A stretch of DNA of 40,134 bases, taken from a virus. The notes under the pieces were generated by a model. The model made no database searches. It had not been told where the DNA came from and worked only from the letters and a program-made list of their open reading frames with translations. The stretch lies in UHGV virus genome UHGV-0384302; one strand, given 5' to 3'. A program made the position numbers and the translations under genes. Below are positions 5,895 through 32,700 of the stretch, in pieces (the first letter of the stretch is position 1; the number at the start of each line of letters is the position of its first letter).

Positions 5895-6186
5895 CGGTTT
5901 TAGTTCTCGCCCCGTATGGGACGGCGAAGAATGGAGACGGTTGGATTTTGGCGATCTCACGCCAAGACAGGAAGAACACCGCTGCATTCAGGAGCTTTGC
6001 AACATCAAGGGAGAACTGGGGCGTACAGGCCGCTACGGCGTGTATTTTGACCTCACAGGCCCGGAGATAGAGTTTTGGGTAGAAGAGTTCGGCAAGCCGG
6101 ACTTCCTGCTCCACATCAAACACCAGGACGCCAGCACGGTGCTGGATTACGTCCGCGAGAGGTGTGAACAATTAAAACTGACTTAA
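5884..6186 (+). CDS. Hypothetical protein (start at the ATG preceded by an AAGGAGG Shine-Dalgarno)
   Basis: MTPDGFSSRPVWDGEEWRRLDFGDLTPRQEEHRCIQELCNIKGELGRTGRYGVYFDLTGPEIEFWVEEFGKPDFLLHIKHQDASTVLDYVRERCEQLKLT, with ggaaaGGAGGctagtaATG upstream. Confidence 0.45.
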   Translation: MTPDGFSSRPVWDGEEWRRLDFGDLTPRQEEHRCIQELCNIKGELGRTGRYGVYFDLTGPEIEFWVEEFGKPDFLLHIKHQDASTVLDYVRERCEQLKLT

Positions 6187-6189
6187 ACC

Positions 6190-6576
6190 ATGGATTATAT
6201 TAAACAAGTTGTGTTACTTGCCGAAACGGTAGGAATAACTGAAGAAGAATTAGATGCTATTGTTTCTCATTTTCTTATAGACTCTTCTTCCCAACTAACA
6301 CAAAAATCTGCTGAGGTTATATATAAAAATCCGGATCCATATTTTAACTGGGTTTTGTATGGACTCCGTTCACGAGAACCTTCGTGTTCATGGGATCATG
6401 CAATACAATTTTTGGACAAACTAAGTGCAGGAATAATTGTCGAGGTGGTTCGATGTTCTGAATGTGTTTACGGACGAAGACAATCTTCCGATAAAATGTT
6501 TAGAGCATGTTCTTTAATCGACAGATGGGAAAGACCAAATCACTTCTGCGCTAAAGGAAAAATTGAAGATAAATAA
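6190..6576 (+). CDS. AT-rich moron: small Cys/His-rich protein (possible zinc ribbon)
   Basis: 128-aa ORF in a visibly AT-rich segment (about 6180-6600) inside the high-GC early operon. Contains C-x2-C...H...C spacing: SWDHAIQF...RCSECVYG...RACSLIDRWERPNHFC. Confidence 0.45.
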   Translation: MDYIKQVVLLAETVGITEEELDAIVSHFLIDSSSQLTQKSAEVIYKNPDPYFNWVLYGLRSREPSCSWDHAIQFLDKLSAGIIVEVVRCSECVYGRRQSSDKMFRACSLIDRWERPNHFCAKGKIEDK

Positions 6577-7367: not shown

Positions 7368-8681
7368 ATGCAACTTACAGAAACACAACTCAACGCCGAG
7401 AAGACCGTTCTTGGCAACTGCATTTACAGCGTCGACAAGGTGGGCACCCTGATCGACCAAGGCTTCACGAAAGACCATTTTGCCCTTCCGGCGCACCAGA
7501 AGGTATGGAGTGCCTTTGAGGCTCTGTCCAGGACTCCGGAGATGTGCAATATCACCGGATTGATTCAGCACCTGGAAACTGCCGGGGAACTTGAATCCGT
7601 AGGAGGCCATATTGGATTGGTCGAGCTATCCACCAACTATGCCTACCACTACAAGTTCGAGTCCTCCGTGACGATTCTGGCAGCGTCCAAAAAGAAGCGC
7701 GACATGGCAGCCCTGTTCATCTCCGGCTTGGAAAAGCTTCAGGATTTGACATCCACCGCGGAAGAGGCTCTGGCGGAAGCTGAAAAGCTCATGTCCTCCA
7801 TGCGGGAGACGTGCGGAGTAAAAGCCGTGGTCAACATCAGTGACGGCATCCATCAGGTGATTGAGAACATGGAATACCGCATCAAGCACCCCGGCCAGGT
7901 GAAGGGGATTCCCACCGGCTACCAGAAGCTGGACCGCGTTTTAGACGGCCTGCAGGATACAGCCATGATCGTCATCGGAGCCCGGCCTGCCGTGGGCAAG
8001 ACTTCGTTCATGACCAATATCCTGCTCAATATCGCCAATTCGGGAACCCCGGTAGGCATGTTTTCCCTGGAGATGTCCAAGGTGCAGATTTTGGAGCGCA
8101 TCATGTTCGGACAGTCCGGCATCGATCCTATGGCTTTGCGGCGTGGGCAGAAGCTGACCACCTACCAGCAGGGCGCTTTCACTGGTGCTGTCCGCCGGAT
8201 AAAAGGGATTTCTTTCTTCGTGGATGACCGCCCCGCGTTGAGGATTGACCAGATACAGGCGACCGCCCGGCGCATGGTGGCGGACCACGGCGTGAGGTGC
8301 ATCGGCGTGGACTATCTGCAGCTTGCCAATCCTTCCAGCCGCGGCGCTTCCCGGGAACGGGAGGTGTCAGAGATTTCCGCCGGCCTCAAGGCCCTGGCCA
8401 AGGAGCTGAATATTCCGGTGATTGTCCTGGCACAGTTAAACCGGGAAGTGGAGAAGCGGGCAGGAAAAGACGCTGGGGTTCCCCGTGTGTCTGACTTGAG
8501 GGATTCCGGATCCATCGAACAGGATGCCGACCAGATCATGCTGCTCTACAGGCCCTCTGCCAGTGATCGGGATGCCGACCCGAAGGAGGCGAAGGTCATC
8601 ATCGGCAAGAACCGTCACGGAAGCACCGGTTACATTGACCTGAAATGGGACGCTGCCGCCACTACCTACAGGGAAGTTTAA
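7368..8681 (+). CDS. dnaB: Replicative DNA helicase DnaB
   Basis: N-terminal DnaB domain (EKTVLGNCIYS...). Walker A GARPAVGKTSF. Walker B/H4 motifs IGVDYLQL and SREREVSEISAGLKALAKELNIPVIVLAQLNREVEKR. RVSDLRDSGSIEQDADQIMLLYR. Confidence 0.9.
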   Translation: MQLTETQLNAEKTVLGNCIYSVDKVGTLIDQGFTKDHFALPAHQKVWSAFEALSRTPEMCNITGLIQHLETAGELESVGGHIGLVELSTNYAYHYKFESSVTILAASKKKRDMAALFISGLEKLQDLTSTAEEALAEAEKLMSSMRETCGVKAVVNISDGIHQVIENMEYRIKHPGQVKGIPTGYQKLDRVLDGLQDTAMIVIGARPAVGKTSFMTNILLNIANSGTPVGMFSLEMSKVQILERIMFGQSGIDPMALRRGQKLTTYQQGAFTGAVRRIKGISFFVDDRPALRIDQIQATARRMVADHGVRCIGVDYLQLANPSSRGASREREVSEISAGLKALAKELNIPVIVLAQLNREVEKRAGKDAGVPRVSDLRDSGSIEQDADQIMLLYRPSASDRDADPKEAKVIIGKNRHGSTGYIDLKWDAAATTYREV

Positions 8682-8685
8682 TGCC

Positions 8686-9066
8686 ATGAAAATAGCCTCA
8701 TTATCCGCATTGGAGTTATTGAACGATGTGAGCATTTGCTGCACCGGAGAGCGCATCCTAGCTTCACAGGTGGCCGTCCTGACGACGGTTGCCCGGTTCC
8801 CTGGGGCTACATCCGGAATGATTGCCAACCATACCAAAATCAGCCTTCCCTCCGCGGGAAGGCTTCTTGGCTATCTCATCAACAGCGGAGACGTGACCGT
8901 GTTCCGCAAACCCATCACCAACGGACAGGTGCGCCGGAAGTTCTACGTCACTCCCCAAGGAGTCAAGACGACGGATAGACTACTTCGGCACCTGGGATGG
9001 AGCCAACGGGGCAAATTTGGCGTTGTCCCGGTTCAGAGTTCACCTACAGAAATTTTTGAGTTATAG
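8686..9066 (+). CDS. Winged-helix (MarR/ArsR-like) regulator-like protein
   Basis: VLTTVARFPGATSGMIANHTKISLPSAGRLLGYLINSGDVTVFRKP...R.FYVTPQG fits a wHTH recognition helix plus wing. Confidence 0.35.
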   Translation: MKIASLSALELLNDVSICCTGERILASQVAVLTTVARFPGATSGMIANHTKISLPSAGRLLGYLINSGDVTVFRKPITNGQVRRKFYVTPQGVKTTDRLLRHLGWSQRGKFGVVPVQSSPTEIFEL

Positions 9067-9073
9067 TTTAACC

Positions 9074-9565
9074 ATGAAAGAATTGACGGAGAAACAGAAG
9101 ACATTTGCCCGCGGCGTGTTTGAAGGATTGAGCCAGCGGGAAGCTTACAAGAAAGCCTACGATTGCAACACGAAAAAAGACAAGACCGTGGATGCTCTGG
9201 CAAGCCGCTTGCTAAGTAATGTTAAGGTGAAGGAGTACTTGGAAGAGCTGAACAAAGAGGTGGAAAGCCCGCTTATCCTGACCAAACAACAGCGGATGAT
9301 CTGGCTTTCCCGCGTGGTTACAACACCGCTTCATGAGGTAGATGACGATTCCGATTTGTGCCAAGAGCATTCTGTAACGACAGGAGAGAATAGCTCAACG
9401 GAGAGAATCAAGATGCCCTCCAAGCTGGGCGCCATTGCCGAGCTCAACAAGATGACCGGAGCCTATGCACCGGAGAAAGTGGAGACCAAAGTTGAGCATT
9501 CTTTCAGCTCGCTTCTCAAGGGGCTTCCTGCTGCTCCTTTGGTTCCACCCCCGGCGGAGTCATAG
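9074..9565 (+). CDS. terS: Terminase small subunit (Terminase_2/P27-like). The track start of 9017 is trimmed to the ATG after the upstream stop.
   Basis: MKELTEKQKTFARGVFEGLSQREAYKKAYDCNTK...ALASRLLSNVKVKEYLEEL...KMPSKLGAIAELNKMTGAYAPEK matches the conserved LT.KQ..F...Y / A...AGY / ASRLL / KL.aLe.L.K..G.y layout of small terminase subunits. Confidence 0.6.
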   Translation: MKELTEKQKTFARGVFEGLSQREAYKKAYDCNTKKDKTVDALASRLLSNVKVKEYLEELNKEVESPLILTKQQRMIWLSRVVTTPLHEVDDDSDLCQEHSVTTGENSSTERIKMPSKLGAIAELNKMTGAYAPEKVETKVEHSFSSLLKGLPAAPLVPPPAES

Positions 9566-11004: not shown

Positions 11005-11038
11005 AAAAAAGCCCTCCCCCGCGTGAACAGGAGAGGGC
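11005..11038 (-). terminator. Rho-independent terminator of the minus-strand late operon
   Basis: Minus-strand RNA GCCCUCUCC-UGUUCACGC-GGGGGAGGGC (9-bp stem with one G.U pair) followed by UUUUUU. Lies directly downstream of the 11067 stop. Confidence 0.7.
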
Positions 11039-11066
11039 CAGCAATAGTTCCCGTGCAGGAAACGGT

Positions 11067-15892: not shown

Positions 15893-18313
15893 TTATTGCG
15901 CTAATTGGTTGATTTCCACGACAGCGGTCTGGGCATAGTGGTGGCCGACAAAAACCCACACTTGCCGGGGTTGCCCGGTCGTGTTGGGGGCAAGCGTCAG
16001 GGTGATTTGGCCGCCGCCGGCTGGTATCTGCTCCGCGGATTGGCTGCACCATACGGCGGCGGGGTCATGCCCGCACATCGTGTCGTTAATGGCGTACACA
16101 GCCTCCGCCAGTGTGGAGGATACCGTCAGCGTTACTTCACCGCCTTCCGCTCCCACCTCCAGCGCGGAAGCCGTCACCTCCGGCACGGGCTTGACCGTCG
16201 CATCACGCATCACAACGCGCTCCATGATCGGCCAGACATCGTTGACTCCCAGCGCGGGGGCTGCGTCAATCCTCATGCCTCCCATCCGCAGCCCCACTTG
16301 CATGGTACTGCTCACCTCGTGAGCCTTGGCTTTTGCCGTGAAGCAGGCCGTGTTGCCGCTCCCGCAAAACAGGCTTGTCATCGGCATCACGTAGTGGCCG
16401 TCCACAAACATCTCCCAGCGATTCTCAACATTGGCGTGGTCAGCCGATTGCCGGGGAGTTATCGCCACAGAAAGATAAGTAACGCTGGGCGCCAATGCCC
16501 ACATATACTGCTGATCACCTACATCCCGCCCGTAATCCGTGCCGCGCAACAGGCAGGACGTGCTGCTGCCCAGGTAGCCCTTGGGGTAGATCGTCACCTG
16601 CCAGGCGGGCGTCATGTCTCTGCTGGTTGCGCCGTTGACAGAGTTGATCAGCGGGTATCTGTAATTTGCATTATCCCAGGCATAATCTACCCAATGGATG
16701 GGATGCGCATAACAATCCGCCGCCGGATTGGTCGCCGAGGAATAGCCTTGCGCCGTACTCCCCAGCAGGATAGACACCTTGTCAGAGCCGATGATGCGCC
16801 ACACAGAGGCGGCGGCATAATCTCTATTACGGCTATTGCCCATGTAGTTGGCAAACTTCCACGCCCCAGTGCTGCAACCAATCAGAGATATGCCGGCAGC
16901 CTTGGTCATCGTGACCAGCATGTCCTGCCAATCGTTACCGTATACGCCCTCCTTGATGGATACGTTGGCCGTGCCCACATTATAAGCGGCGGACATCTGC
17001 ATCTGCCTCACAATGGTAGTTACCCAGGAGGGGATCAGGGTCTCCATGTAGTACCCCATCCGCCGCCAATCATCTGCGGCCCGCTGCTCTATCAGCGCCT
17101 CGTAAGAGATAGCCTCCTGCGCCGTGGCGGGCAAAGGGACGCGCACGCCACCGTTGGCAGTAACGGTGCCCGTCGCAGTCAGACCGCCGGCCAGCGTCAT
17201 GTTGCCCGCCGCGTCCACCTGCGGGATGGCGGCAAGGGCTTGCTGGGCCGCGGTGGCGGCGTTGCTGGCTGTCTGTGCAGATTGGCTGGCATCAATGGCG
17301 GTCGTATTTACCCTTCCTTCCGTTTTGTCTATTTCCTCTTTGGCGGTTTCCGCCTGTTCGACAAGGGGCGTGATTGCCTCCATGGCTTCCGCCTGGACCG
17401 TCTGCACTGCCTGCACGGCTTCCGTCTTTGCCGTTTCCACGGCTGTGACAGCAGCGCCTTGTGCGCTGGCTACCTTGTCCGTGGCGGTTTTCTGCGCTCG
17501 CCCTACAGCAAGAACGGAATCAGCTTGCTTGGCTTGTATGACGGTAACGGCTTCCTCTTTGGCCGCGCTGATCGTCTGTTCCCCGTTGCTGACCGTCTGC
17601 GTAAAATCTGAAACAATCCCTTCCACAGCCGTCTTAGCGTCATTGGCGCTCCTGGCGTCACGGGCCGCATCAGCGGCGGACGTATTGGCCGCCGTCTCGG
17701 AATTAGAAGCTGCCACCTTGGAAACGTAAGCAGAATCGGCATAGCCTTCCGCTTCTCTGGCACGTTCCACGGCGGTAGTGGCTGCTCCGGTTGCCGTCGT
17801 GGCTGCCTGACTCGCTGTGTCCGCGTCCGTGCGGGTTTGTTTGGCTGCATTCAAGGCGTGTTCTGCAGAGATGGAGGCGAGGGTGCAGGAGTTCCATTCC
17901 AGACGGATTTGACGGGTGACGTCGCCTGGCAGGCGAATGGACAGAGTCCGGGACGCATAGGTTTTGGTGTTGTCGGCAAGCTTCCCAATAGATTTGATGA
18001 CACCGATGTAACCGCTAATAAGGCGGTTCTGGTTTCCGGATTCCGAGACGGCAAAGATTTCATAGGGGTGGCGGCCTTCGGGGAGCCCGATGCAGGAAAC
18101 GATGAGGACGTTGGCTTCTTCCGCTGCTGCGGATTTCTGGATGTCGAGTTCGACGGGTTCCGCCCTGCCTTCAAGATGGACGCGCCCGGTGAAAGTGACT
18201 CCGTCCAGAGATACGGGTTCCAAGGTGGATTCATCGCTAAACATCCAGCGCTGCGTCCATGGAATGTTTTCAATGGCTGACCAGTTTTCTGTGACACCGA
18301 GAAAGTCAAGCAT
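15893..18313 (-). CDS. Tail fibre protein
   Basis: 806 aa. N-terminal globular domain, central Ala/Thr/Gln-rich low-complexity fibrous segment (...AATTATGAATTAVERAREAEGYADSAYVSKVAASNSETAANTSAADAARDARSANDAKTAVEG...) typical of phage fibres, and a large C-terminal globular (receptor-binding-like) domain. Confidence 0.7.
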   Translation of the reverse strand: MLDFLGVTENWSAIENIPWTQRWMFSDESTLEPVSLDGVTFTGRVHLEGRAEPVELDIQKSAAAEEANVLIVSCIGLPEGRHPYEIFAVSESGNQNRLISGYIGVIKSIGKLADNTKTYASRTLSIRLPGDVTRQIRLEWNSCTLASISAEHALNAAKQTRTDADTASQAATTATGAATTAVERAREAEGYADSAYVSKVAASNSETAANTSAADAARDARSANDAKTAVEGIVSDFTQTVSNGEQTISAAKEEAVTVIQAKQADSVLAVGRAQKTATDKVASAQGAAVTAVETAKTEAVQAVQTVQAEAMEAITPLVEQAETAKEEIDKTEGRVNTTAIDASQSAQTASNAATAAQQALAAIPQVDAAGNMTLAGGLTATGTVTANGGVRVPLPATAQEAISYEALIEQRAADDWRRMGYYMETLIPSWVTTIVRQMQMSAAYNVGTANVSIKEGVYGNDWQDMLVTMTKAAGISLIGCSTGAWKFANYMGNSRNRDYAAASVWRIIGSDKVSILLGSTAQGYSSATNPAADCYAHPIHWVDYAWDNANYRYPLINSVNGATSRDMTPAWQVTIYPKGYLGSSTSCLLRGTDYGRDVGDQQYMWALAPSVTYLSVAITPRQSADHANVENRWEMFVDGHYVMPMTSLFCGSGNTACFTAKAKAHEVSSTMQVGLRMGGMRIDAAPALGVNDVWPIMERVVMRDATVKPVPEVTASALEVGAEGGEVTLTVSSTLAEAVYAINDTMCGHDPAAVWCSQSAEQIPAGGGQITLTLAPNTTGQPRQVWVFVGHHYAQTAVVEINQLAQ

Positions 18314-18344
18314 GTGGTCTTGATAACACGCATCTGTTCCAGGT

Positions 18345-18396
18345 GGATAGTTTCATGGTGTTAAGTAGTCATCCGCTTAACACCGTGAAACTATCC
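18345..18396. promoter_or_regulatory. 21-bp inverted repeat (1 mismatch, 10-nt spacer) centred between the divergent tail-fibre and nozzle-like genes; candidate late operator / bidirectional promoter element
   Basis: GGATAGTTTCATGGTGTTAAG-tagtcatccg-CTTAACACCGTGAAACTATCC. It lies exactly 32 nt from the minus-strand ATG (18313) and 32 nt from the plus-strand ATG (18428). The right arm recurs at 25507-25530. Confidence 0.5.
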
Positions 18397-18427
18397 GAAC
18401 CACCCCCGGAGTTTTTATGATGGCTGC

Positions 18428-21400
18428 ATGGCAATGACAGCTTTCAACGGTGGCGAGGTTTCCTCTTGGATGGCACGCAGAGTTGACATGGATGTTCTTT
18501 CCCGGGCTTGCGGCACACTGGTCAATTTTGATGTTTCCCAAATGGGAGGTGTTTCCCGGCGCCGCGGGTTCCGGCGCGTGGTTGCTACTCTGGAGGGCTC
18601 CATCATCCTGCCTTATATCTATTCCACTGATGACCGTTACCTTGTCGAGGCGGCCCCTTCCTCGCTCCGCGTCTTGTCCGTTGATGGCGATGTGGTGGCT
18701 TCCCTGCCATCCGTTTGGACGGCGGCTGATATTTCCCAGCTCCGGCACAAGCAGGTCAACAGCATGCTGTTTCTGGCCTGCCCATCCCACGAGCTCATGG
18801 TGCTCAAACGGGATGATGACGGCGTGTTTGCCCTGGACCCCTACGAATTTAAGAATAGGCCGTGGCGGTATGAGGAGTACCGGGATTTCCCGGTCCGGCT
18901 GACGCTGGATGACGGATGCTACAGGCTTTCTTTTGGCGAGTATGCGGGGGATCCGGATGCCGCCACCAACGAAGGGGACGTGATGCGCGTCCAGGTGACG
19001 GTGCCCCAGCAGACCGGGTACAGCACGGGGGCAGTCATCCGCCAGGGCTGGGTGATTGCCAAGGCGTTCACCGCGGCCTCTTCTTACGCTGCCGGCAGGA
19101 AGCTCTGCATCAACGAGGGGAGTTACTGGTCCTGGTGGACCTGTGACAAGGATTTCAACGGGGCAACGCACTACGTAGACGGCTTCACCTCTCCGGCGGA
19201 TTATCCTGACCATTTCCACAAGGGGATTGCCTGCCATTCCAACACCATCACCTGCAAGGGAACCTGGACATTCTATTGTTACAAGGAGTGGTACGGCACG
19301 TACGCGGTGGAGCGCCGCTATCCGGATGAAGACTGGCAGTTGCTGGGCACGTCCAATTCCAAGGTGGGCGCTGCTTCCAACCTTCAGCTCACCGGAGACG
19401 AGGCGGGCGAGGAATGCTACCTGCGCCTGATGCTCTATGAGTCCCAGCTTTCCAACGCTTCGGACCCCAGCCAGGGTTTCCCCGCTGACGCCTGCGGCAA
19501 CAAGCTGGTCGTGGACGCCTACCGCAAGGACGTGGTGCTGCAGCTGCGTTCCGGCGCCCGTCCGGCCACCGTGCAACGGTTCACGATTCCGGCAACTCCG
19601 ACGCTGCGGCATTACCTGACCAGTACCACGTCCTCCATCAAGGCAAGCCGTGTGTGGGTGGATGATGTGGAGATGACGGGAGCTTCCGCTGTGCTGACGC
19701 TGGGCAAGGCCGGCATTGATGTGACGCCCAGGGGGATTCCCGCGGATGCCCTGGCCGACGGGCAAACAGTCAGGTTTGGATGGACGGTGCCCCAGCAGAC
19801 TGGGCGCATTGCCCTGGATGCTCGCGGGATGCGGACAGTCTATCTTCCTGCAGGGGCGCGGTTTGATGTGAATTTGGGGGCGGACATCTACAACAGGGGA
19901 CGCGGCGCGGTGGTCAAGCTGACGGCTTATTCCGCTGCGGATGTGCAGTACACGACGTTGTGGGAGAGCAAGACAGATGTCTACACCACGCCTTCCAGCG
20001 GGTTTTATACATTTCGGATCACCCTCAATAACGGCAGCACCCTGGAGGCTGCCGAGTGCCAGGCCGAGCTTTCCGGGGTGGCTTCCGGCGTCGTCAAGCC
20101 GGAGGTCCAGGAGGATGCGCCCGCTCCGGCCTCCGTGTCCACCTGCGACGTGTTGCGCTTTTCGCTTCCCCTGGAGCCTACTGCCAAGGCTCATTTTTCT
20201 AAGTCCGGGGTGCCCGCCATCAAGGCGCTGGTGGTGGATAAGGGCCGCTGGACGTTCCAGGGCACGGCCCTGGTAGATGGGGATAACCTAGTCATCAAGC
20301 CCAAAGGGCTGACGACGGATGATCTGGTCAAAGGGCAGACCGTCCGCGTCGAGTGGGATGTGGCCGCCGAGAATTTTTCCATCGGAGCCAACCAGCAGAC
20401 CGGCTCCCGATGGGTGACCCGATTCTTGCCGGCAGGGACGGTCGTCAATTTGAAAGGGTACATCTGGATGTACGCCGGCCAGCGCAACGAGCAGGCCGCC
20501 ATGGTCGGTAAGTATTTAAGTTGGACCCCCAACAGCGGTTCTCATAGCATTTCCACGCACACGACTCTTGCCGGTTCATGGACGGTTTCGGAGGATGGCT
20601 TTTACCTGGTTTACCTCCCCTTTGTCAACGCGTTTTCCAGCGTCATCCAGTGGCCGGCGGCTTCCGCAGCGATTCCGGCCTGTACAGGACATTTGGAGGG
20701 GGAGGTGACGGACCTGACGGCTTCCGCGGAGTATTCGCTTTGGGACAATGTGTCCACGATTCCGGAGGGCGTCCCACCGTCCGGGGAGTCCCTGATGTGG
20801 AGCTTTGCCGCGTTCCGGGGCGTCTACGGGTTCCCTTCTCTGGTGGATGTGTTCCAGCAGCGTCTTGTTCTGGCTGCCACGCAGGCCCAACCGCAGACGG
20901 TGTGGTTGAGCAAGACCGATGACCTCAACAATTTCGAGGTGGGCAAACAGGATGACAGCGCCTTGGCTCTCACGCTTTCCACGACGACGCAGAACCGGAT
21001 TTGCTGGCTGATGGCCCAGTCCAGTCGCCTGTTGCTGGGAACGGCGGATGCCGAGTGGGCTGTTTCCGGCGGCCAGGGAGTAATGACCTCCACCAACGCG
21101 CGGGCGGACAACCACGGCTTTGTGGGTTCCTCCGACGTGCCGGCCCTGATGGCAACCGACAAGGTGCTGTATATTGAGCGCGGCGGTGGCCGCGTGTACC
21201 AATACGGTTATGATTATGAGAGTGACGGGTACGTTTCCCGTGATTTAACTGTGTTTGCCGACCATGTGCTGGCCGACGGCGGCGGGTGCCGGGATATTGC
21301 TTTCATCCGTAAGCCGGAGCCGCGGGCGGTGTTCGTGCGCCGGGATGGACAGCTTGCCCTGATGACCTACAACAGCATGCACCAGGTCAACGCCTGGCAC

Positions 21401-21829
21401 CGGTACACGACGGACGGGACATTCGAGGGGGTGGCCGCCCTGCCCAACGGCGACAAGGCGGATTTGCTGTTTGCCCTGGTGGTGCGCGACGATGGACGGT
21501 TCATCGAGGTGCAGGCTCCGGACAATGAGTTCCAGGATCCGGACGGCAGGGATTACGTGTCCACACTGGTGACTTGTTCATTGACTCCGCCCAGGGATGC
21601 GAGAAAGGGCCACGGGGCCCAGGTGATGATGTGCCTGCGCTCCGAAACTCCCGTGGAGGGAGTGATGGTGAGTTCCGATGGGGATGCCTGGTCCGAACTG
21701 GACAGGTACGGTCTGCTTCCTGCCGGATGGGATACCCTGGTATCTGACGGGGCGTGGGACTTTGACGTGCGCGGCGGTGTTCGGGTAACGGGCAACCGCG
21801 GGTTTGAGCTTCTGGCTTTGAGGTGGTGA
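18428..21829 (+). CDS. Large tail structural protein with a triplicated internal module; nozzle / tail tubular protein B-like (T7 gp12 / P22 gp10 class) candidate
   Basis: 1133 aa, translationally coupled to terL. N-terminus MAMTAFNGGEVSS...R.D....S...N...GG.SRRRG resembles the gp12/gp10 N-terminal pattern. Three repeats of a module of about 150 aa marked by TVPQQTG / GANQQTG followed by ...LPAG...N(L)... . Confidence 0.45.
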   Translation: MAMTAFNGGEVSSWMARRVDMDVLSRACGTLVNFDVSQMGGVSRRRGFRRVVATLEGSIILPYIYSTDDRYLVEAAPSSLRVLSVDGDVVASLPSVWTAADISQLRHKQVNSMLFLACPSHELMVLKRDDDGVFALDPYEFKNRPWRYEEYRDFPVRLTLDDGCYRLSFGEYAGDPDAATNEGDVMRVQVTVPQQTGYSTGAVIRQGWVIAKAFTAASSYAAGRKLCINEGSYWSWWTCDKDFNGATHYVDGFTSPADYPDHFHKGIACHSNTITCKGTWTFYCYKEWYGTYAVERRYPDEDWQLLGTSNSKVGAASNLQLTGDEAGEECYLRLMLYESQLSNASDPSQGFPADACGNKLVVDAYRKDVVLQLRSGARPATVQRFTIPATPTLRHYLTSTTSSIKASRVWVDDVEMTGASAVLTLGKAGIDVTPRGIPADALADGQTVRFGWTVPQQTGRIALDARGMRTVYLPAGARFDVNLGADIYNRGRGAVVKLTAYSAADVQYTTLWESKTDVYTTPSSGFYTFRITLNNGSTLEAAECQAELSGVASGVVKPEVQEDAPAPASVSTCDVLRFSLPLEPTAKAHFSKSGVPAIKALVVDKGRWTFQGTALVDGDNLVIKPKGLTTDDLVKGQTVRVEWDVAAENFSIGANQQTGSRWVTRFLPAGTVVNLKGYIWMYAGQRNEQAAMVGKYLSWTPNSGSHSISTHTTLAGSWTVSEDGFYLVYLPFVNAFSSVIQWPAASAAIPACTGHLEGEVTDLTASAEYSLWDNVSTIPEGVPPSGESLMWSFAAFRGVYGFPSLVDVFQQRLVLAATQAQPQTVWLSKTDDLNNFEVGKQDDSALALTLSTTTQNRICWLMAQSSRLLLGTADAEWAVSGGQGVMTSTNARADNHGFVGSSDVPALMATDKVLYIERGGGRVYQYGYDYESDGYVSRDLTVFADHVLADGGGCRDIAFIRKPEPRAVFVRRDGQLALMTYNSMHQVNAWHRYTTDGTFEGVAALPNGDKADLLFALVVRDDGRFIEVQAPDNEFQDPDGRDYVSTLVTCSLTPPRDARKGHGAQVMMCLRSETPVEGVMVSSDGDAWSELDRYGLLPAGWDTLVSDGAWDFDVRGGVRVTGNRGFELLALRW

Positions 21830-21830
21830 T

Positions 21831-23474
21831 ATGGTGTTGACGCCCGAACAGTACGCGACGTTGCAGACGCTTCTTTCCAACCGGGAGTGGCGGCTGAACC
21901 ACCTGTACTGGATCGTGAACAAGAGAGGGAGGCTGGAACGCTTCCGGCTCAACTGGGCGCAAGAGAAGTTGCACCGGGGGCTGCATTTCTACAACAACGT
22001 TCTCAAGGCGCGGCAACTCGGCATCTCCACCTATACCGCCATGTTGTTCCTGGACATGTGCATGTTCACGCCCAACTACACAGCGGGCATTGTAGACCGC
22101 ACGGGTCCGGAGTCCAAAAAGAAGCTCGCCAAGATCAAGTTCGCCTTTGACCACCTTGACCATCTTCCTCAAAACCCCACGCAGGAGGATTTGGAGCTGG
22201 CCGCCATCGGAGCCGCGTTGAAGGAAGAAATGAAGGGCTGCTACATCGGAGCCACGGAAGCGCGGTTTCCGAACGGCTCCATGATTTACGCCGGAACCTC
22301 CCTGCGCGGCGGCACGCACCAGTTGATTCATATTTCCGAACTCGGCTATGTGGCAGCCCACGACCCGATGAAGGCAGAGGAAACCATCACCGGCACCCTC
22401 AATTCCATCGACCAGACCGGCGTCATTATTATGGAGTCCACCCACGAGGGCGGACGCTACGGCCTGAATTACCATTTGATTTCCGAGGCCATGGATATGA
22501 TCGGCAAGCCGCTTTCCCCACTGGACCCGAAGTTCTGGTTTTTCTCCTGGGTGGAACAGCCGGAGTACCGTCTGAAAGGGTGGAAGTTTTCCGGGAATCC
22601 GGAGCTGGCCAAGTATTTCAAGAGCCTGGAAACGGAGTACAAGATTATGTTGGATGAAGAACAGAAAGCATGGTACGAGGCGAAGAGCCGCACGCAGAAG
22701 TCGAAGATGCGCCAAGAGTTCCCGACGGTGCCGGACGAAGCCCTGAACCCGATTGCGGAAGGGACGATTTACGGCAGCCAAATCAATCACCTTCGGGAGA
22801 TGGGGCGGCTGACGGCAGAGTTCGAGCCGGATCCGTACCGGCCTGTGTACGCCGTGTTTGACAAGGGGATGGCGGACTTTACCTCCGTCTGGTGGATTCA
22901 GCCGCGCCCGGACGGTTTGTTCGCGCTGCTGGATAATTACACGGCCAACGGCCAGGGGCTGGACCACTACATCGGGGAGATTCGCAAGAGGGAGGCCCTG
23001 TTCGGCAGGGTGAAGGATATTGTGCTTCCCCACGATGGGGTGAACCGGGATTACAACGGGGTGAAGTATTTTGAGAAGCTGGAACAGGCGGGGTATTCCA
23101 CCATCCTGGTGAAGCGCACTTCCGACGTGTGGGCTTCCATTGACAGCACACGATCCCTGCTGCGGCATGCGGTGATTCATGCAAGGTGTTCCCAAAACAC
23201 GATGCTGCCGGACATGAAGGAAGGGTATATTTCCGGCGTGGACGCCCTGGCAAATTACAAGATGGCGCCGCCGGGCCGCAACGGTGTTGCTCGGAACGAG
23301 CCGCTGCATGATGTTTGTTCCCACGCCTGCGATTCCCTCCGCACCTTCGCGGATGCCTGGGCCGCCGGCCTGATTGCCAAGGAGACCGGGTGGCGGTATG
23401 AAGAAGACGACGAGGACAGGCGTAGGGGGCCGTATTCCGGGTTGGTGAAGGGAGCGGAAAGCCTCTACATATAG
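21831..23474 (+). CDS. terL: Terminase large subunit
   Basis: Deviant Walker A LKARQLGISTY (compare T4 gp17 SRQLGKT). ATPase then C-terminal nuclease-like half (VWWIQPRPDGLFALLDNYTANGQGLDHYIGEIR). 547 aa. Confidence 0.85.
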   Translation: MVLTPEQYATLQTLLSNREWRLNHLYWIVNKRGRLERFRLNWAQEKLHRGLHFYNNVLKARQLGISTYTAMLFLDMCMFTPNYTAGIVDRTGPESKKKLAKIKFAFDHLDHLPQNPTQEDLELAAIGAALKEEMKGCYIGATEARFPNGSMIYAGTSLRGGTHQLIHISELGYVAAHDPMKAEETITGTLNSIDQTGVIIMESTHEGGRYGLNYHLISEAMDMIGKPLSPLDPKFWFFSWVEQPEYRLKGWKFSGNPELAKYFKSLETEYKIMLDEEQKAWYEAKSRTQKSKMRQEFPTVPDEALNPIAEGTIYGSQINHLREMGRLTAEFEPDPYRPVYAVFDKGMADFTSVWWIQPRPDGLFALLDNYTANGQGLDHYIGEIRKREALFGRVKDIVLPHDGVNRDYNGVKYFEKLEQAGYSTILVKRTSDVWASIDSTRSLLRHAVIHARCSQNTMLPDMKEGYISGVDALANYKMAPPGRNGVARNEPLHDVCSHACDSLRTFADAWAAGLIAKETGWRYEEDDEDRRRGPYSGLVKGAESLYI

Positions 23475-23527: not shown

Positions 23528-23556
23528 TTGACACTACTGATTAGGGTGCTATTGTT
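23528..23556 (+). promoter_or_regulatory. Putative sigma70-type promoter of the AT-rich moron cassette
   Basis: TTGACA(23528-23533), a 16-nt spacer, TATTGT. The first ATG of the cassette (23564) is about 8 nt downstream, which may give a leaderless transcript. Confidence 0.3.
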
Positions 23557-23563
23557 AATAGCA

Positions 23564-23758
23564 ATGAGAGCGGTCAGGCATATCTCTGTCAAGGAACGTA
23601 TGGAAAGATTGAAACGTGATTTGAAAGAGGCACGTTGCAAGGCGGTCAGTACTGTTTCCCGTGGAAATGTTTGTCTTCTTCAAGGAAATTTTGTGACGCA
23701 AGAAGAGCTGAAGGAGCGCCGTTCCCATGCAGCGGCTTTTCTTAAAAAGATGCGCTAA
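23564..23758 (+). CDS. Small basic protein, first gene of the AT-rich moron (alternative start 23600 with an AGGA Shine-Dalgarno). The track ORF starts at TTG 23528.
   Basis: MRAVRHISVKERMERLKRDLKEARCKAVSTVSRGNVCLLQGNFVTQEELKERRSHAAAFLKKMR in a GC-poor segment. Confidence 0.35.
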   Translation: MRAVRHISVKERMERLKRDLKEARCKAVSTVSRGNVCLLQGNFVTQEELKERRSHAAAFLKKMR

Positions 23759-23763
23759 TAACC

Positions 23764-24357
23764 ATGCGTTCCAGTAAAGAACTTGCGGAGCTTTTGTTTT
23801 CCGAATTTGCCAAAGCTGAAAAGGCAGTCAAGGATTACGAGCATTTAACAGCGGAGCTTCCAGTTCCTTCCGTGAATGAATTGCGGTATGCGGGATGCCA
23901 TGCCGTACAAGCGATCAAGCGTGGAATTGATGAAAGCAATGAATGTCAGGAGTTGCTTGATCGAGCCATACGGCATTCCAAAAGAGCTTATTACGATGTC
24001 TTAGAGTACGATGTCATGTTGATGACTAAGAAGGTCGAAGCGTATCAGAGGTTCTATGAGGGCTATGAACGTTTAGCAGCTTCCATTATTCCTCATTATT
24101 GTGACCATATTGCTAAATTAAATGCTTTAGGAGAAATACTCGGAAGTGCTCATGAACTGGATAAAGAGTCCCCAGATTATGTGAAGAGCTGTCAGGAGCA
24201 TATTCAAGTCATGCGTAGTTTTATCAACGATTTTTTGGCCGCCCAAGAACCTCTTTTTTCAGCGATTAAGCATGATCAAAAAGTTATGCGCCTTACTTGG
24301 ATTTTATGGGTATTAGGTCTCGTGATTAGCTATATCCTTGGCCGCTTTTCAGGTTAA
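23764..24357 (+). CDS. C-terminally membrane-anchored protein of unknown function in an AT-rich moron (candidate exclusion/defence cargo)
   Basis: 197 aa. Helical soluble domain with Cys/His residues (CHAVQ...NECQ...HYCDH...CQEH), then a single terminal TM helix MRLTWILWVLGLVISYILGRFSG. Local GC is well below the flanks. Followed by a strong terminator. Confidence 0.5.
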   Translation: MRSSKELAELLFSEFAKAEKAVKDYEHLTAELPVPSVNELRYAGCHAVQAIKRGIDESNECQELLDRAIRHSKRAYYDVLEYDVMLMTKKVEAYQRFYEGYERLAASIIPHYCDHIAKLNALGEILGSAHELDKESPDYVKSCQEHIQVMRSFINDFLAAQEPLFSAIKHDQKVMRLTWILWVLGLVISYILGRFSG

Positions 24358-24370
24358 TTTTCACTATTAA

Positions 24371-24401
24371 AAGCCCCGTCCGGCATTTCACCGGACGGGG
24401 C
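24371..24401. terminator. Bidirectional rho-independent terminator between the convergent moron and capsid genes
   Basis: AGCCCCGTCCGG-catttca-CCGGACGGGGCT is a perfect 12-bp GC-rich stem with a 7-nt loop. It is T-rich on the minus-strand side (TTTAATAG). Confidence 0.75.
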
Positions 24402-24436
24402 TGACTTATGCAATAACCAACTGGGGAGATGGAGGG

Positions 24437-25420: not shown

Positions 25421-25482
25421 ATCACCCCTTATGGCATAGGAGACAGAGAGGGGCTGATGCTCGTCCTGTTAATTCCACTGCT

Positions 25483-25546
25483 CATGATGTTAAGCGGATG
25501 GATCGTATTAACACCGTGAAACTATCGAACCGCCTGTGGAACTCCT
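25483..25546. promoter_or_regulatory. Second copy of the conserved TTAACACCGTGAAACTATC element with a short inverted repeat, upstream of the plus-strand virion-protein operon
   Basis: catgaTGTTAAgcggatggatcgtaTTAACAccgtgaaactatcgaacc...tatgATGG shares 19 identical nt plus downstream gaacc/tatgatgg/gcatgg blocks with 18376-18430. Confidence 0.45.
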
Positions 25547-26119
25547 ATGATGGGGCGCATGGACAAGGTGACGTTTTTCCAGCAGGCGCTTCAAACCCTT
25601 GGAGACCGCGAGTATAAGCGGGATACGCCCACGGGGAATGCCTGTGATTTGTGGTTCCCGACGGTGATGCACGAAGCTTTGAATTACGGAGCATGGAGTT
25701 TTGCAACCCGCTCTGTTGATTTATCCGCGGAGGAGGACGGAACGTTCCTGCTGCCGGAAGACTGCCTGCGCCCCTTGAAGGTGGATGCCATGCGCTTCCG
25801 CATCGATGGGCGCCGGGTGATTGTAGAGCAGCCCTGGACCAGCCGCGGTGACAAGGCGCTTTTCCTGCGTTACGTTTCCAATGCTCTGGCGAAGGCGGAA
25901 CGGCTGCCGGAGGACCAGCCCTTGTTCGTCCGCGGGGTGACGCTGCTCCTTGCCGCCCGCATAGCGGTAAAGATTACAGGGGACCAGCAGCTTGCCCTGG
26001 CTCTGGATCAGATGGCTTCCGCCACGCTGGCCGACGCCCTGCACAAGGACGCCCTGGCCCAGTACAGCAATGACCAGCACCCGCTGGCCGATATTTTGAA
26101 TTCTTCCATCGTAGGGTAG
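25547..26119 (+). CDS. Tail tubular protein A / adaptor (T7 gp11-like) candidate
   Basis: 190 aa (T7 gp11 is 196 aa). YGAWSFATRS...TFLLPED and LFVRGVTLLLAARIAVKITG resemble gp11 RGWTFNIEE...ITLLPD and [20 protein letters not shown]. First gene of the operon that continues into internal virion proteins. Confidence 0.4.
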   Translation: MMGRMDKVTFFQQALQTLGDREYKRDTPTGNACDLWFPTVMHEALNYGAWSFATRSVDLSAEEDGTFLLPEDCLRPLKVDAMRFRIDGRRVIVEQPWTSRGDKALFLRYVSNALAKAERLPEDQPLFVRGVTLLLAARIAVKITGDQQLALALDQMASATLADALHKDALAQYSNDQHPLADILNSSIVG

Positions 26120-29729: not shown

Positions 29730-32700
29730 ATGGACTACTTGCAGGAAAACACCTTCTTCATCCCGTCCCCCGCGCCCGCGCCTGAACAACTCGCCTCCCC
29801 GGACTATGAGCAGCAGCGGAAACAGGACATGGACTACCTCTCCAACTACCTCCTCTCCGGCCAGTACCCGGAACACCGCGCCTTGGCGGAACAGGCCCAC
29901 GGCCATGACCCCTATGCCCATGCGCCGGAACAAGAACGCAAATGCTTCGTTGGGCGTAAAGCCTGCGGCGTCCTCCTCGGCAACGACCAGGTCCCGGACA
30001 TGTACTTCCGCCAGCAAAACCTCCCCATCCCGGATGGGGCGGACACGCGGGAAAAAATGTACATGGCCGTCTATGACCACCTTGACGGCGTCGTCAAGCA
30101 GGCCAAGCAGAAACAGGTGGAAGAACAAAAAGCCCTGGAACAATACGGCCAGCAGTTATTGGGGCGCATTGACCGCGCCTGCAAAGGCAGCGGAGAACAA
30201 TGGACGCCCAAAGACATAGACATGATGGGCCGCGCCGGAATCACACCGGACATCATCAACCGCGTCCGCGCCGCCTATGCCAAACTCCCCGTCGGCAGTT
30301 TCATCCTCGATGATGCCGATGCGGCAAACGTCATGACGGCAGCCGGACTCAACAAAGACGACCTCACGCCGGATGACAAAAAAGTGGAAGACATCCTCAT
30401 GAGCCTGTGGGGCAAGGCCATCTATGACAACTACGGAGCCAACATCGACAGACAATATGAAAACCCCGTCGCTCAATATGCCTACGAAAGCATCAAGCCC
30501 ATCCACAACCTCTACTACTCCACGCTCTCCGGCGCAATGGGCGTCTTGGAAAACCTCCGCAATGTAGACGCGGACGTCCCCTCCTTCATGACGCCGGGGG
30601 ACCGCATGGCATACGACCATATCCCCTTTGACAACAAAAACCCCTTCCTCTCGGCGGAAGAAATGCGGCATGACAAGGGACTCCTCCGCACCATCGACTT
30701 CCGGGCAAAAATGAAAAACGTCCGCAAGGCGGCCCAGCAGGCATACACCGAAGGGAGGCAAACCTGGGGAATCAACAAATTCGCCGTCACCCTTGGCGAC
30801 ATGGTCGGTCAATCCGTCCCCAACGCCATACCCTACTTTGGCGTGTACAGCCTCCTCAAAGGATCCGGCACGCAACGCTATGAAGAAGGCGTTGCCCTCG
30901 GACTATCCCGTGAAGAAAACGTCAAACGTGCATCCCTCTTCGGGGCGGCGGACACCCTGGAAGAAAAAATCGGCATGGGCGTCCTTGGCAAAGTCCCCGT
31001 GCTGGGGCGTCTCCTGAACGCCGGACTCAACAAAACGGGCCTCCCGTACAACTCCCTCCGCGCCAAATACCTCGCCAGTGAAACCGCCCAAATATGGGGT
31101 AACACCGCGGCGGGCGTGCTGGAAGAAGGCGTTGCGGAACCCATCGTCGGGGGCACTACCCGCGCTCTCATGAGCAACTTCCTTGACGATGATCGGGGCA
31201 AAACCTCCCTCTCCGCCATCCCCGGCGCCATCCTCCAAAACTTTGAAGGCTACCAGGGCCTCGCCCTTGCCTTCTACTCCCGCGGCTTCGTCAAACTCGC
31301 GGAACCCCAAATCCGGGAAAACGTCAAGCACTTCGCGGAATCCCTGGACGGATTCACCGCTCTCGGCGGTTCGGAATCCGGCTACCTTCGCGCCTTGGAA
31401 ATCAAAGACACCGACGCCCGCAACGACTTCATCGCCGAACACCTTAAAACCGAATGGGCAAACAACCCGGAACAGGCAGCCCGCCGGGCGGAACAGGGAA
31501 ACGCCGCCCTCCTCGGTACACAGGAAATCGCCCAGCTCCGCGAACTCGAATCCTTCCGCGCCTTGCAGGAGCGCGGCGTCATTCCCCGCTTTGAGCCAGC
31601 GCAGGAAACGGGCAAATACCGTGTCTACCTTAACGCGGAAACAGCGGAAACCCGCCGGAAGACCCAACCTTCGGAGGAAGGAATTTCCGCGGAGAACCCC
31701 GTGGCGGAACAAACGCGGCAGGGGCAGGACTACGCCCTCATGACGGAAGACCAGCTCAACACCCTCCTCACCCTCTCCATTGGAGAACGTGAGCGGGACA
31801 CCATCCTGTGGGCGCAAAACCTCCTCGCGGCGGAAAACGTCGTGGACTACCTCGAACAACAGGGATGGAAAACGGAAAACATCGGCCAGACGGAAACCAC
31901 AGCCACCCTCCGCACGCTCGCCCGGCAGGCTACCGCCACCGTCCGCCTGCTGGAAACCTCCGGCATCACCCGGCAGGAAGCCCTTGCCTCGGTCAACCCG
32001 GACATCTCGGAACATGCCAGCCTCCAAAGCATCATCACCGCCTACTCCGGGTCCAAGGGCAGGGCGGCCACCGCCCGCCGCCGCGGGGAACAAACCTCCT
32101 TTGCCTCGAATGCCTATGTCATCCGCCAGCAGGATCCGGTCAACGGAGGCTTCCAGCAAATACTGCGCTTCTCCCGTGGAGAAGCCACGGTGGAAAACCT
32201 GTGGGAAGAAACCATGGAACAGGCCGCCATCAACTGGTGCGCCCAGGAAAACCTCTCCCCGTCCACCTTCGGCAGCCAGCTACAGGACATGCAGCGCGCC
32301 GTCAACCAGCTCTACGGAGAAGAAGGGGGCGTTCAATTCATCGGCCTTGACGTCGTTCCCACCTCCGGCGACGTCGTGGAAGCCCTCTCCCTCATCGGAC
32401 GTTCCCGCCTCATGCACGACGTGGTAGCTGGCACCAGCAGCCTCCCCTCGTGGATCCAGAAACTTGTCCGCTTCGTCTCCTCCTTCCTCGAACAATTCCG
32501 TGCCAAGGCGGAACTCGGCCACGCCATCGCCAAACTGGAATCATCCGGCCAGCTCACCCCGGAAATGCAAAACCTCATCAACGCCATGACCGGGGCCGTG
32601 GACTCCATCCACGCGCGGGACATCCGGCAGGAAGCGGACATCGTCACCGCCGTGGAAAGCTCCATCGCGGAACATGAAGCCGCCTTCACCCGTGCGGGCA

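Follow-up and report, generated by a model that had tools for sequence, protein, structure and literature searches.

Between two divergent late genes of a temperate Akkermansia podovirus lies a 21-bp inverted repeat, which raises the question of whether it serves as one symmetric operator or as two promoters placed back to back. The original prediction had left both readings open, a shared site for a dimeric regulator or a bidirectional late promoter element. The window, namely the whole stretch of DNA that was analysed (40,134 nucleotides), appears to be essentially the whole genome, and no terminal repeat proving a circular window was found. The structural genes of the phage are T7-like, but it encodes no RNA polymerase of its own; it possesses a CI-like S24 repressor and an integrase. 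A Pfam search found no RNA_pol domain in any ORF of at least 600 aa, including p806, tubB, p845 and p2900, nor in the other ORFs tested; moreover, the window ends are almost adjacent, as implied by the related phage L001, leaving no room for a missing polymerase gene. A blastn search of 17800-19000 against 50,697 GenBank phage records gave no match, so that no annotated relative is present among them. The genes concerned are as follows.

15893..18313, minus strand: p806, a tail-fibre-like protein of 806 aa, first gene of the minus late operon
18428..21829, plus strand: tail tubular B (tubB, nozzle)-like protein, T7 gp12-like, first gene of the plus late operon
21831-23474, plus strand: terL, following the tubB gene

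The gene labels of the original prediction proved broadly right. The nozzle/terL operon is backed by a match of tubB to phrog_376 (E=5e-95), whereas p806 matched no protein family and is called tail-fibre-like from its terminus pattern, a conserved N-terminus and a variable C-terminus. The minus late operon extends to about 11067, comprising amidase, portal and scaffold-like genes, with a terminator at 11010-11039. Both divergent start codons are backed by cross-clade N-termini (MAMTAFN against MIRCAFN and MKRISFN; MLDFLGV against MLNFLGV), and the tubA ATG at 25559 gives MDKVTFF, the start used in sister clades.

The repeat ranks first among the inverted repeats of the whole 40-kb window, and consists of two arms separated by a short spacer.

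18345..18365, minus strand: left arm, GGATAGTTTCATGGTGTTAAG (minus-strand reading CTTAACACCATGAAACTATCC), predicted late box facing the p806 operon, core 19-mer at 18346-18364
18366..18375, no strand: inter-arm spacer of 10 nt, tagtcatccg in the window and tgaccatccg in the related phage L010
18376..18396, plus strand: right arm, CTTAACACCGTGAAACTATCC, predicted late box facing the tubB/terL operon, core 19-mer TTAACACCGTGAAACTATC at 18377-18395

The arms are complementary at 20 of 21 positions, the single mismatch being T18356 against G18385; L010 carries a C at the mismatch position, which makes its repeat perfect over 20 bp. Across 100 first-order Markov shuffles of the window, searched for arms with no more than one mismatch and loops of up to 40 nt, the longest arm measured 11-17 nt (mode 12), compared to 21 nt in the real sequence. 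The 21-bp repeat with one mismatch is thereby confirmed and is far beyond chance. Its centring between the divergent starts holds as well, with exactly 31 nt from either arm to its ATG, at 18313 on the minus strand and 18428 on the plus strand.

Each arm is a directional 19-mer, TTAACACC[G/A]TGAAACTATC, which occurs exactly three times in the window, at 18377 (plus), 18364 (minus) and 25508 (plus). Correspondingly, the half-site AACACCGTGAAAC, for which the original prediction proposed a genome-wide search, has a third exact copy at 25510-25522 that it had missed. This copy lies at a second divergent junction, near 25.5 kb, between the capsid and tubA genes. The boxes of that junction and the hexamers of all four late units are as follows.

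25508..25526, plus strand: third exact copy of the 19-mer, facing the tubA/internal virion protein operon
25475..25493, minus strand: partial inverted box, with TTAACATCATGA kept (12 nt) and the distal 7 nt diverged, 21 nt upstream of the capsid box
25454..25472, minus strand: degenerate capsid-facing box, TTAACAGGACGAGCATCAG, a 10/19 match with TTAACA kept, at the canonical distance to the capsid -10-like hexamer
18416..18421, plus strand: -10-like TATGAT (5/6 to TATAAT), 6 nt upstream of the tubB ATG at 18428, conserved in L010
18320..18328, minus strand: extended -10-like TGtTATCAA, 6 nt upstream of the p806 ATG at 18313
25546..25551, plus strand: -10-like TATGAT, 7 nt upstream of the ATG at 25559
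25428..25433, minus strand: -10-like CATAAG, 7 nt upstream of the capsid ATG at 25420

There is one box per late unit, three being exact or one-mismatch copies and the fourth degenerate, and the sole further near-match in the window, at 8678, carries 4-5 mismatches. All four late units share one layout, in which TTAACA is followed at 38-39 nt (start to start) by a -10-like hexamer and then, after 6-7 nt, by the ATG. The hexamers are TATGAT (tubB), TATCAA (p806), TATGAT (tubA) and CATAAG (capsid). Those of tubB and tubA match TATAAT at 5/6 positions, and a hexamer of at least this quality ending 6-8 nt before the start occurs at 0.8% of all window ATGs; because the tubB and tubA units are paralogous, however, their two TATGAT hexamers are not independent observations. 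Those of p806 and capsid match at 4/6, a level reached or exceeded at 6.9% of all window ATGs in the same position, and both TATCAA and CATAAG are without the usually critical T at -7. At the -35 positions, 17-18 nt upstream of the -10 candidates, the hexamers TATCCG, TATCGA and TATCCA are very poor, and a sigma-70 consensus scan of 17800-19000 found no promoter. TATGCC was also considered as the capsid -10 and rejected, as it reads TGTGCC in L010. Promoters of the sigma-54, ECF sigma (GAAC/TGAAAC -35), sigma-32 and extended -10 (TGnAACTAT in the box) types were rejected by eye, the partner element being missing, unconserved among the three copies, or absent in sister clades.

The inverted repeat is probably two copies of one directional late-promoter box placed head to head, one for each divergent virion-gene operon, with the host sigma-70 RNA polymerase, leaderless late mRNAs and a clade-specific activator. 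Each promoter unit would then run in the order 19-nt box, 19-20 variable nt, -10-like hexamer, 6-7 nt and ATG. From this geometry we infer that the polymerase would initiate no more than 1 nt from the A of the ATG (18428 on the plus strand, 18313 on the minus strand), and a start at the ATG would make the late mRNAs leaderless. The box would occupy about -51 to -33, a class II-type activator position beside the poor -35, where it would probably be bound by a phage-encoded, clade-specific late activator rather than a repressor; seen from the opposite promoter, each arm would also span about -82 to -64. The symmetry of the repeat would thus result from joining two units, each with the same fixed promoter geometry, and would not reflect a symmetric operator. 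The Akkermansia host uses sigma-70-type promoters, and about 10% of the transcription start sites of A. muciniphila are leaderless (PMC4782308). The CI-like gene of the phage has a promoter of the form TTGACA-16-TAATAT, ending 7 nt before its ATG. Many genes of this phage are without Shine-Dalgarno sequences, and therefore their absence at the late starts is by itself no argument for leaderless mRNA. One feature counts against leaderless initiation at tubB: a GGAG at 18407-18410 sits 6 nt before an ATG that is out of frame (18417), an arrangement compatible with a leadered transcript that begins further upstream.

That GGAG also bears on a different reading, in which the 19-21-mer would be a complete promoter for a phage RNA polymerase or sigma-like factor, starting at its own 3' edge, about 18397-18401, with a leader that would measure about 30 nt. 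Like T7-group promoters, the box spans about 20 bp, is specific to its clade and recurs before each late operon; its 'ACTAT' superficially resembles the T7 and SP6 promoters, and the GGAG could be a ribosome-binding site in the leader. However, the GGAG serves a 6-codon out-of-frame mini-ORF (18417-18437), whose ATGATGG overlaps the tubB TATGAT, and it is GAAG in L010. Moreover, no large ORF has an RNA polymerase domain and the genome appears complete, and the extended -10 'TGnAACTAT' is absent from the boxes of the sister clades L002 and L014. This reading, which we regard as very unlikely, would also leave unexplained the conserved -10-like hexamers that every clade has 6-8 nt before the ATG, one of them in L072 being a perfect TATAAT.

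Conservation of the motif in related phages, on which the original prediction had partly staked its case, was found: L001 and L010 both have the same three 19-mer positions. The tubB of L010 is 76% identical to that of the window, and the spacers of the two differ at many positions, whereas the boxes and hexamers are unchanged; the p806 hexamer, for instance, is a conserved island amid diverged flanking spacer. The layout of TTAACA, 38 or 39 nt to the hexamer and 6 or 7 nt to the ATG fits all four late units in both haplotypes, and as conservation within this clade rests on these two sequence haplotypes, the statistics are thin. In the L002 and L014 clades, the late genes are collinear with those of the window, and single direct copies of a box stand before capsid, tubB and tubA. 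This box is alignable to that of the window, with 11/18 positions identical, and starts 39 nt from a TATATT hexamer, as in the window. Box type is not followed by tubB, which is 84% identical between clades whose boxes differ. Two further Akkermansia prophages present a comparable arrangement with boxes of their own. L072 has four copies of GTGAGAACGTTCCTCT, each followed after exactly 23 nt by a hexamer (TATAAT, TATAAG, TAAGGT or CATAAT) and then, after 5-8 nt, by an ATG, whereas L073 has three copies of a 25-mer, each followed by 13-14 nt, a hexamer (TATGAT, TATGAC or TAGTCT), 6 nt and an ATG. It appears from these sequences that other Akkermansia prophages possess such a late-promoter architecture independently. 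Public metagenomes show the box in this phage type alone, so that it is no site of a host regulon.

These comparisons also bear on the single operator, in which one dimeric or tetrameric phage regulator would take the arms as half-sites and control both operons together. In its favour are the length of the repeat, its near-perfect match and its exact centring; a 12-nt inverted pairing (TCATGrTGTTAA / TTAACACCGTGA) is found at the second divergent junction too, and in L072 two boxes form a 42-bp palindrome. The arm centres lie 31 bp apart, about three helical turns, and so on the same DNA face, although this distance can also be listed among the reasons against the operator. Such a site is nevertheless unlikely. 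At the second junction, the full tubA 19-mer works with a partner that has lost 7/19 positions (12/19 kept), and the inverted TTAA ends are separated by 12 nt at one divergent site but by 14 nt at the other. The sister-clade boxes are mostly single, with no consistent inverted partner before tubB, tubA or capsid. Each box is fixed in orientation and in distance to the hexamer and ATG of one gene, which marks a directional promoter element and not a half-site. Of the two readings offered by the original prediction, the bidirectional late promoter is therefore the one that is supported, on account of the directional boxes at a fixed distance to hexamer and ATG before every late operon, and the one shared dimer operator is disfavoured. 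Pairing as such may still have a function of its own, e.g. cooperative binding, as inverted pairing is partly present at 25.5 kb and the L072 palindrome occurs without divergent genes.

A protein bound at the boxes could also act negatively. As repressor sites, they would let a phage or host repressor cover both -35 regions and shut off late expression in the lysogen. In each predicted promoter the box does overlap the -35, where occlusion classically takes place, and the phage is temperate, with its CI-like S24 repressor and integrase. We consider this quite unlikely, in that the very poor -35 hexamers should make the promoters weak when unaided, the absence of an early-operon activator would already account for late silence in the lysogen, and the early promoter region near 1890-1945, which is under CI control, has no box.

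The repeat might instead act as a nucleic-acid structure, be it a cruciform in the DNA or a hairpin in the RNA that serves stability, processing or termination. A hairpin of -37.5 kcal/mol is predicted, with z=-9.0 for the plus and z=-5.9 for the minus strand, and the arm mismatch becomes a G-U wobble in plus-strand RNA. Nevertheless, with both divergent genes downstream of the repeat, neither mRNA should hold both arms; there is no U-tract and a terminator scan had no match there, and the paralogous 25.5-kb site folds no better than shuffled sequence (z about -0.6). The Rfam match is only sub-threshold (mir-196, 38.7 bits against a gathering score of 55.4) and is a generic response to long hairpins. 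Altogether, a structural role is highly improbable. Hairpin promoters of the N4 virion RNA polymerase, which have a 5-7 bp stem and a 3-nt loop and serve early genes, were considered and set aside, as the stem here is 21 bp, the loop 10 nt and the genes late and structural.

If the arms are back-to-back late promoters, a phage-encoded activator is to be sought among the early genes.

8686..9066, plus strand: MarR-like winged-helix protein (wHTH), last regulator-like gene of the early operon, directly upstream of terS

This wHTH is the candidate box-binding factor that we infer. In PHROG and Pfam, its profile matches are limited to a weak MarR_2, and its close homologues occur only in the same phage. 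BLASTP against the ORF upstream of terS in L072 detected no similarity, and a single-sequence AlphaFold model was unusable (pLDDT 37). PHROG and Pfam scans of 20 early ORFs revealed no sigma factor and no known late activator. Another protein, p197, was rejected as a regulator, being a helical protein with a transmembrane segment at its C-terminus, in the manner of a moron gene (an accessory gene carried by a prophage).

The gene position of the wHTH resembles that of RinA/ArpU, small DNA-binding proteins of temperate Gram-positive phages; their genes close the early region, directly upstream of terS, and the proteins are needed for late operon transcription (PMC3152322). Compared to RinA, however, no sequence similarity was detected, terS here lies apart from the late operons, and four late promoters are predicted instead of one. 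The T7-group promoters share with the boxes the form of a clade-specific repeat of about 20 bp before structural operons, and the phage shares T7-like portal, capsid and tail tubular genes, but it has no phage RNA polymerase gene, and sigma-70-like -10 hexamers are conserved 20 nt downstream of the box.

The late promoters of P2/P4 depend on Ogr/Delta and include the divergent PP/PO pair, with a box in P2 that is a TGT-N12-ACA dyad centred near -55. The predicted arrangement here is similar in that a temperate phage would use the host sigma-70 RNA polymerase at four late promoters with a poor -35 and a conserved upstream activator box, two of them divergent, as they are in P2 at the packaging/head gene junction. 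Unlike in P2, the 19-mer box has no clear internal dyad, would lie at -51 to -33 and would precede leaderless mRNAs; no Ogr-like zinc-finger protein was identified in this phage. Class II-type activation is known from Mu C/Mor at late and middle promoters and from lambda cI at OR2 on PRM. As in those systems, an activator site at about -42 would abut or overlap a weak -35, although Mu C and lambda OR involve dyad-symmetric sites bound by dimers. Lambda PRM gives a leaderless mRNA and stands back to back with a divergent promoter, one protein activating the one and repressing the other. Leaderless mRNA and back-to-back promoters are likewise predicted here; by contrast with lambda, the same box has the same relative position at both divergent promoters, and both are thus predicted to be co-activated.

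As an element, a back-to-back late promoter box of this sort is ordinary and shows no new kind of mechanism; the Akkermansia phage that carries it has been little studied. A bolder scenario is conceivable though doubtful: the lineage may have lost a phage RNA polymerase and replaced it with an undescribed, fast co-diversifying pair of a small phage activator and its box of about 19 bp, which would drive leaderless late operons. The repeat would then be dual-use, each bound factor being proximal (about -42) for one promoter and distal (about -73) for the other, and so coupling the operons. We found no literature on T7-like Akkermansia phages or their promoters. Akkermansia is of major interest in the gut microbiome, and the biology of its prophage induction is poorly known. 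For this family of temperate Akkermansia phages, the analysis provides a concrete map of late transcription, with four predicted promoters, predicted starts at nucleotide level, a mutable box and a short list of candidate regulators. In addition, the clade-specific boxes can be used for annotating late operons and for classifying these prophages.

The window is essentially the complete ~40 kb genome of a temperate podovirus, the closest genomic relatives of which are prophages in Akkermansia metagenome-assembled genomes (MAGs). Its virion genes are T7-like, comprising portal (PF12236), capsid (PF19821), tail tubular A and B (tubA and tubB) and terL, and the early region also encodes DnaB, terS and an integrase. 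The features concerned here are as follows:

1070-1888 (-), early region, S24 CI-like repressor
8686-9066, early region, MarR-like winged-helix protein (wHTH)
from 18313 (-), late unit running from p806, an 806-aa tail-fibre-like protein, to the portal and scaffold-like genes
from 18428 (+), late unit of tubB and terL
from 25420 (-), late unit of the capsid gene
from 25559 (+), late unit running from tubA to a 2900-aa protein

Between the divergent p806 and tubB genes lie two 21-nt arms (18345-18365 and 18376-18396), which pair at 20 of 21 positions and flank a 10-nt spacer. They form the top inverted repeat of the entire window; the longest arm in 100 first-order Markov shuffles, at no more than one mismatch, was 11-17 nt. 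The repeat is present as originally predicted, and its central placement also holds, each arm ending exactly 31 nt from the start codon on its side (ATG 18313, -; ATG 18428, +); N-termini conserved among distant relatives fix both codons. Alignment of both intergenic regions revealed a common directional unit, a 19-mer box (TTAACACC[G/A]TGAAACTATC) at 18377 (+), 18364 (-) and 25508 (+), and all three copies point toward the first gene of a late unit. The suggested search of the window for the half-site found a third exact copy at 25510-25522. The motif is conserved, as the same three copies occur in the relatives L001 and L010; L010 shows only 76% tubB identity and a diverged spacer and flanks, but its boxes are undiverged. 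A public metagenome scan confined the box to this phage type, three chance matches aside. Judged from sequence comparisons within and across clades, the box is a clade-specific, directional and putative late-promoter element.

The original prediction had proposed either a bidirectional late promoter element or a shared operator for a dimer. The former is supported, in the form of directional boxes, one per late unit, whereas the lone full box at tubA, the unequal spacers (12 nt vs 14 nt), the 31 bp between arm centres and the single boxes of sister clades speak against a single operator for one dimer at 18345-18396. Nor is a structural RNA or terminator favoured: the repeat lies upstream of both genes and lacks a U-tract, the paralogous 25.5-kb site does not fold (z=-0.6), and Rfam yields just a sub-threshold generic hairpin match. 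The repeat is genuine and looks functional, yet ordinary promoter architecture accounts for it.

The four late units of both haplotypes (the window and L010) share one pattern, where the distance from TTAACA to a -10-like hexamer is measured start to start:

tubB unit: TTAACA, 39 nt, TATGAT, 6 nt, ATG
p806 unit: TTAACA, 39 nt, TATCAA (TGn before the hexamer), 6 nt, ATG
tubA unit: TTAACA, 38 nt, TATGAT, 7 nt, ATG
capsid unit: degenerate box TTAACAGGACGAGCATCAG, 39 nt, CATAAG, 7 nt, ATG

At a comparable distance, a TATAAT match of at least 5/6 precedes 0.8% of all ATGs in the window and one of at least 4/6 precedes 6.9%; the internal late genes checked reach at most 3/6. The TATCAA and CATAAG hexamers lack the T at -7, and the units of tubA and tubB, being paralogous, do not count as independent evidence. 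The -10-like hexamers conserved downstream of the box argue against a T7-type or other phage polymerase promoter, as does the lack of a polymerase gene in the window: no large open reading frame (ORF) carries an RNA polymerase domain, and, from the length of a 96%-identical IMG/VR contig, the window ends should be almost adjacent, leaving no space for a missing one.

In the proposed arrangement, each box would sit at about -51 to -33 within its own promoter, overlapping a very poor -35 element, and at about -82 to -64 relative to the opposite one, so that the “perfect centring” would be the outcome of two equal-length units joined head to head. Repression through the box is a less likely alternative to activation, and the missing -35 elements do not suit it well. 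If the -10 element ends at -7, the predicted transcription start is the A of each ATG, which would make the late mRNAs leaderless. Many genes of the window lack a Shine-Dalgarno sequence, which makes its absence weak evidence for leaderless starts. Leaderless late mRNAs appear plausible in an Akkermansia host: Cappable-seq of A. muciniphila gave sigma-70-type -35/-10 logos, with leaderless transcripts at ~10% of transcription starts (PMC4782308). The CI-like repressor gene has a near-consensus promoter (TTGACA-16-TAATAT; 1888-1922, -) ending 7 nt before its ATG, and its mRNA is predicted to lack a leader, as does lambda cI mRNA made from PRM. A six-codon mini-ORF, ATGATGGCTGCATGGCAATGA (MMAAWQ*; 18417-18437, +), has a stop overlapping an in-frame ATG of tubB (ATGA). 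Its ATGATGG, common to the tubA unit, contains the predicted hexamer TATGAT, and the GGAG before its start is GAAG in L010.

Prophages of other clades have related arrangements. In the L002 and L014 clades all late genes are collinear. Their box can be aligned with that of the window (11/18 identical) and, as there, lies 39 nt start to start from the hexamer; it precedes capsid, tubB and tubA singly, in direct orientation, and is not consistently joined by an inverted partner. Relative to these clades, the portal-to-fibre block and capsid are inverted in the window's clade, which brought two boxes back to back. The tubB of the window is 84% identical to that of the L002 clade (L002-L009), yet the upstream promoter box is of a different type, indicating that structural genes and boxes recombine independently (mosaicism). 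L072, an Akkermansia MAG prophage with 48% tubB identity, carries another 16-mer (GTGAGAACGTTCCTCT) ahead of four late genes; after every copy come exactly 23 nt, TATAAT, TATAAG, TAAGGT or CATAAT, 5-8 nt and ATG. L073 has a 25-mer three times, followed by 13-14 nt, TATGAT, TATGAC or TAGTCT, 6 nt and ATG. Upstream of the L072 capsid gene, a near-perfect 42-bp palindrome (17722-17763) consists of two abutting inverted late boxes; because it sits between collinear scaffold and capsid genes, box pairing is not merely a by-product of divergent genes. At the second junction of the window (25.5 kb), a 12-nt inverted partial box is kept 21 nt upstream of the capsid box. Together, the two arrangements make cooperative binding to paired boxes possible. 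In L020, nested 28-32-nt inverted repeats (6146-6247) lie between integrase and capsid genes; many IMG/VR prophage contigs begin there, so the stretch is probably the attP/arm-site region for its clade.

The box is predicted to act like the activator-dependent promoters of temperate phages, namely the late P2 Ogr-dependent PP/PO and Mu C-dependent promoters, and lambda cI at PRM. Compared to these, it has no clear internal dyad, its sequence is clade-specific and its transcripts are predicted to be leaderless. The best candidate regulator is the wHTH, for three reasons. It sits at the early operon's end, directly before terS, the position occupied by RinA-type late activators (PMC3152322); the only close homologues found come from this phage type; and TTAATGCCATGAAAATAGC at 8678-8696 (+), overlapping its start codon, matches the late box at 15/19 positions (chance expectation ~0.1-0.2). 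This box-like sequence may be an autoregulatory site or have arisen by chance. Neither family searches nor a single-sequence structure model of the wHTH added anything.

The terS gene (9017-9565, +) is placed at the early operon's end beside integrase, 12 kb from terL (21831-23474, +), which lies in the late operon behind tubB. The 2900-aa ORF (29730-38432, +) occupies the place of a T7 gp16-type ejected internal virion protein and has no Pfam or PHROG match; its residues 1469-1605 match Tas1 (PDB 6ox6, E=6.8e-07), a type VI secretion (p)ppApp-synthetase toxin, and may be an ejected alarmone-synthetase domain. Between terL and capsid, an AT-richer insert (23528-24402, +) absent from sister clades carries a sigma-70 promoter of its own (TTGACA-16-TATTGT with TG), an ORF of ~64 aa, a helical protein of 197 aa that has a C-terminal transmembrane segment and, 3' of these genes, a perfect 12-bp bidirectional terminator (24372-24402); it looks like a moron (prophage-carried accessory gene) or defence cassette.
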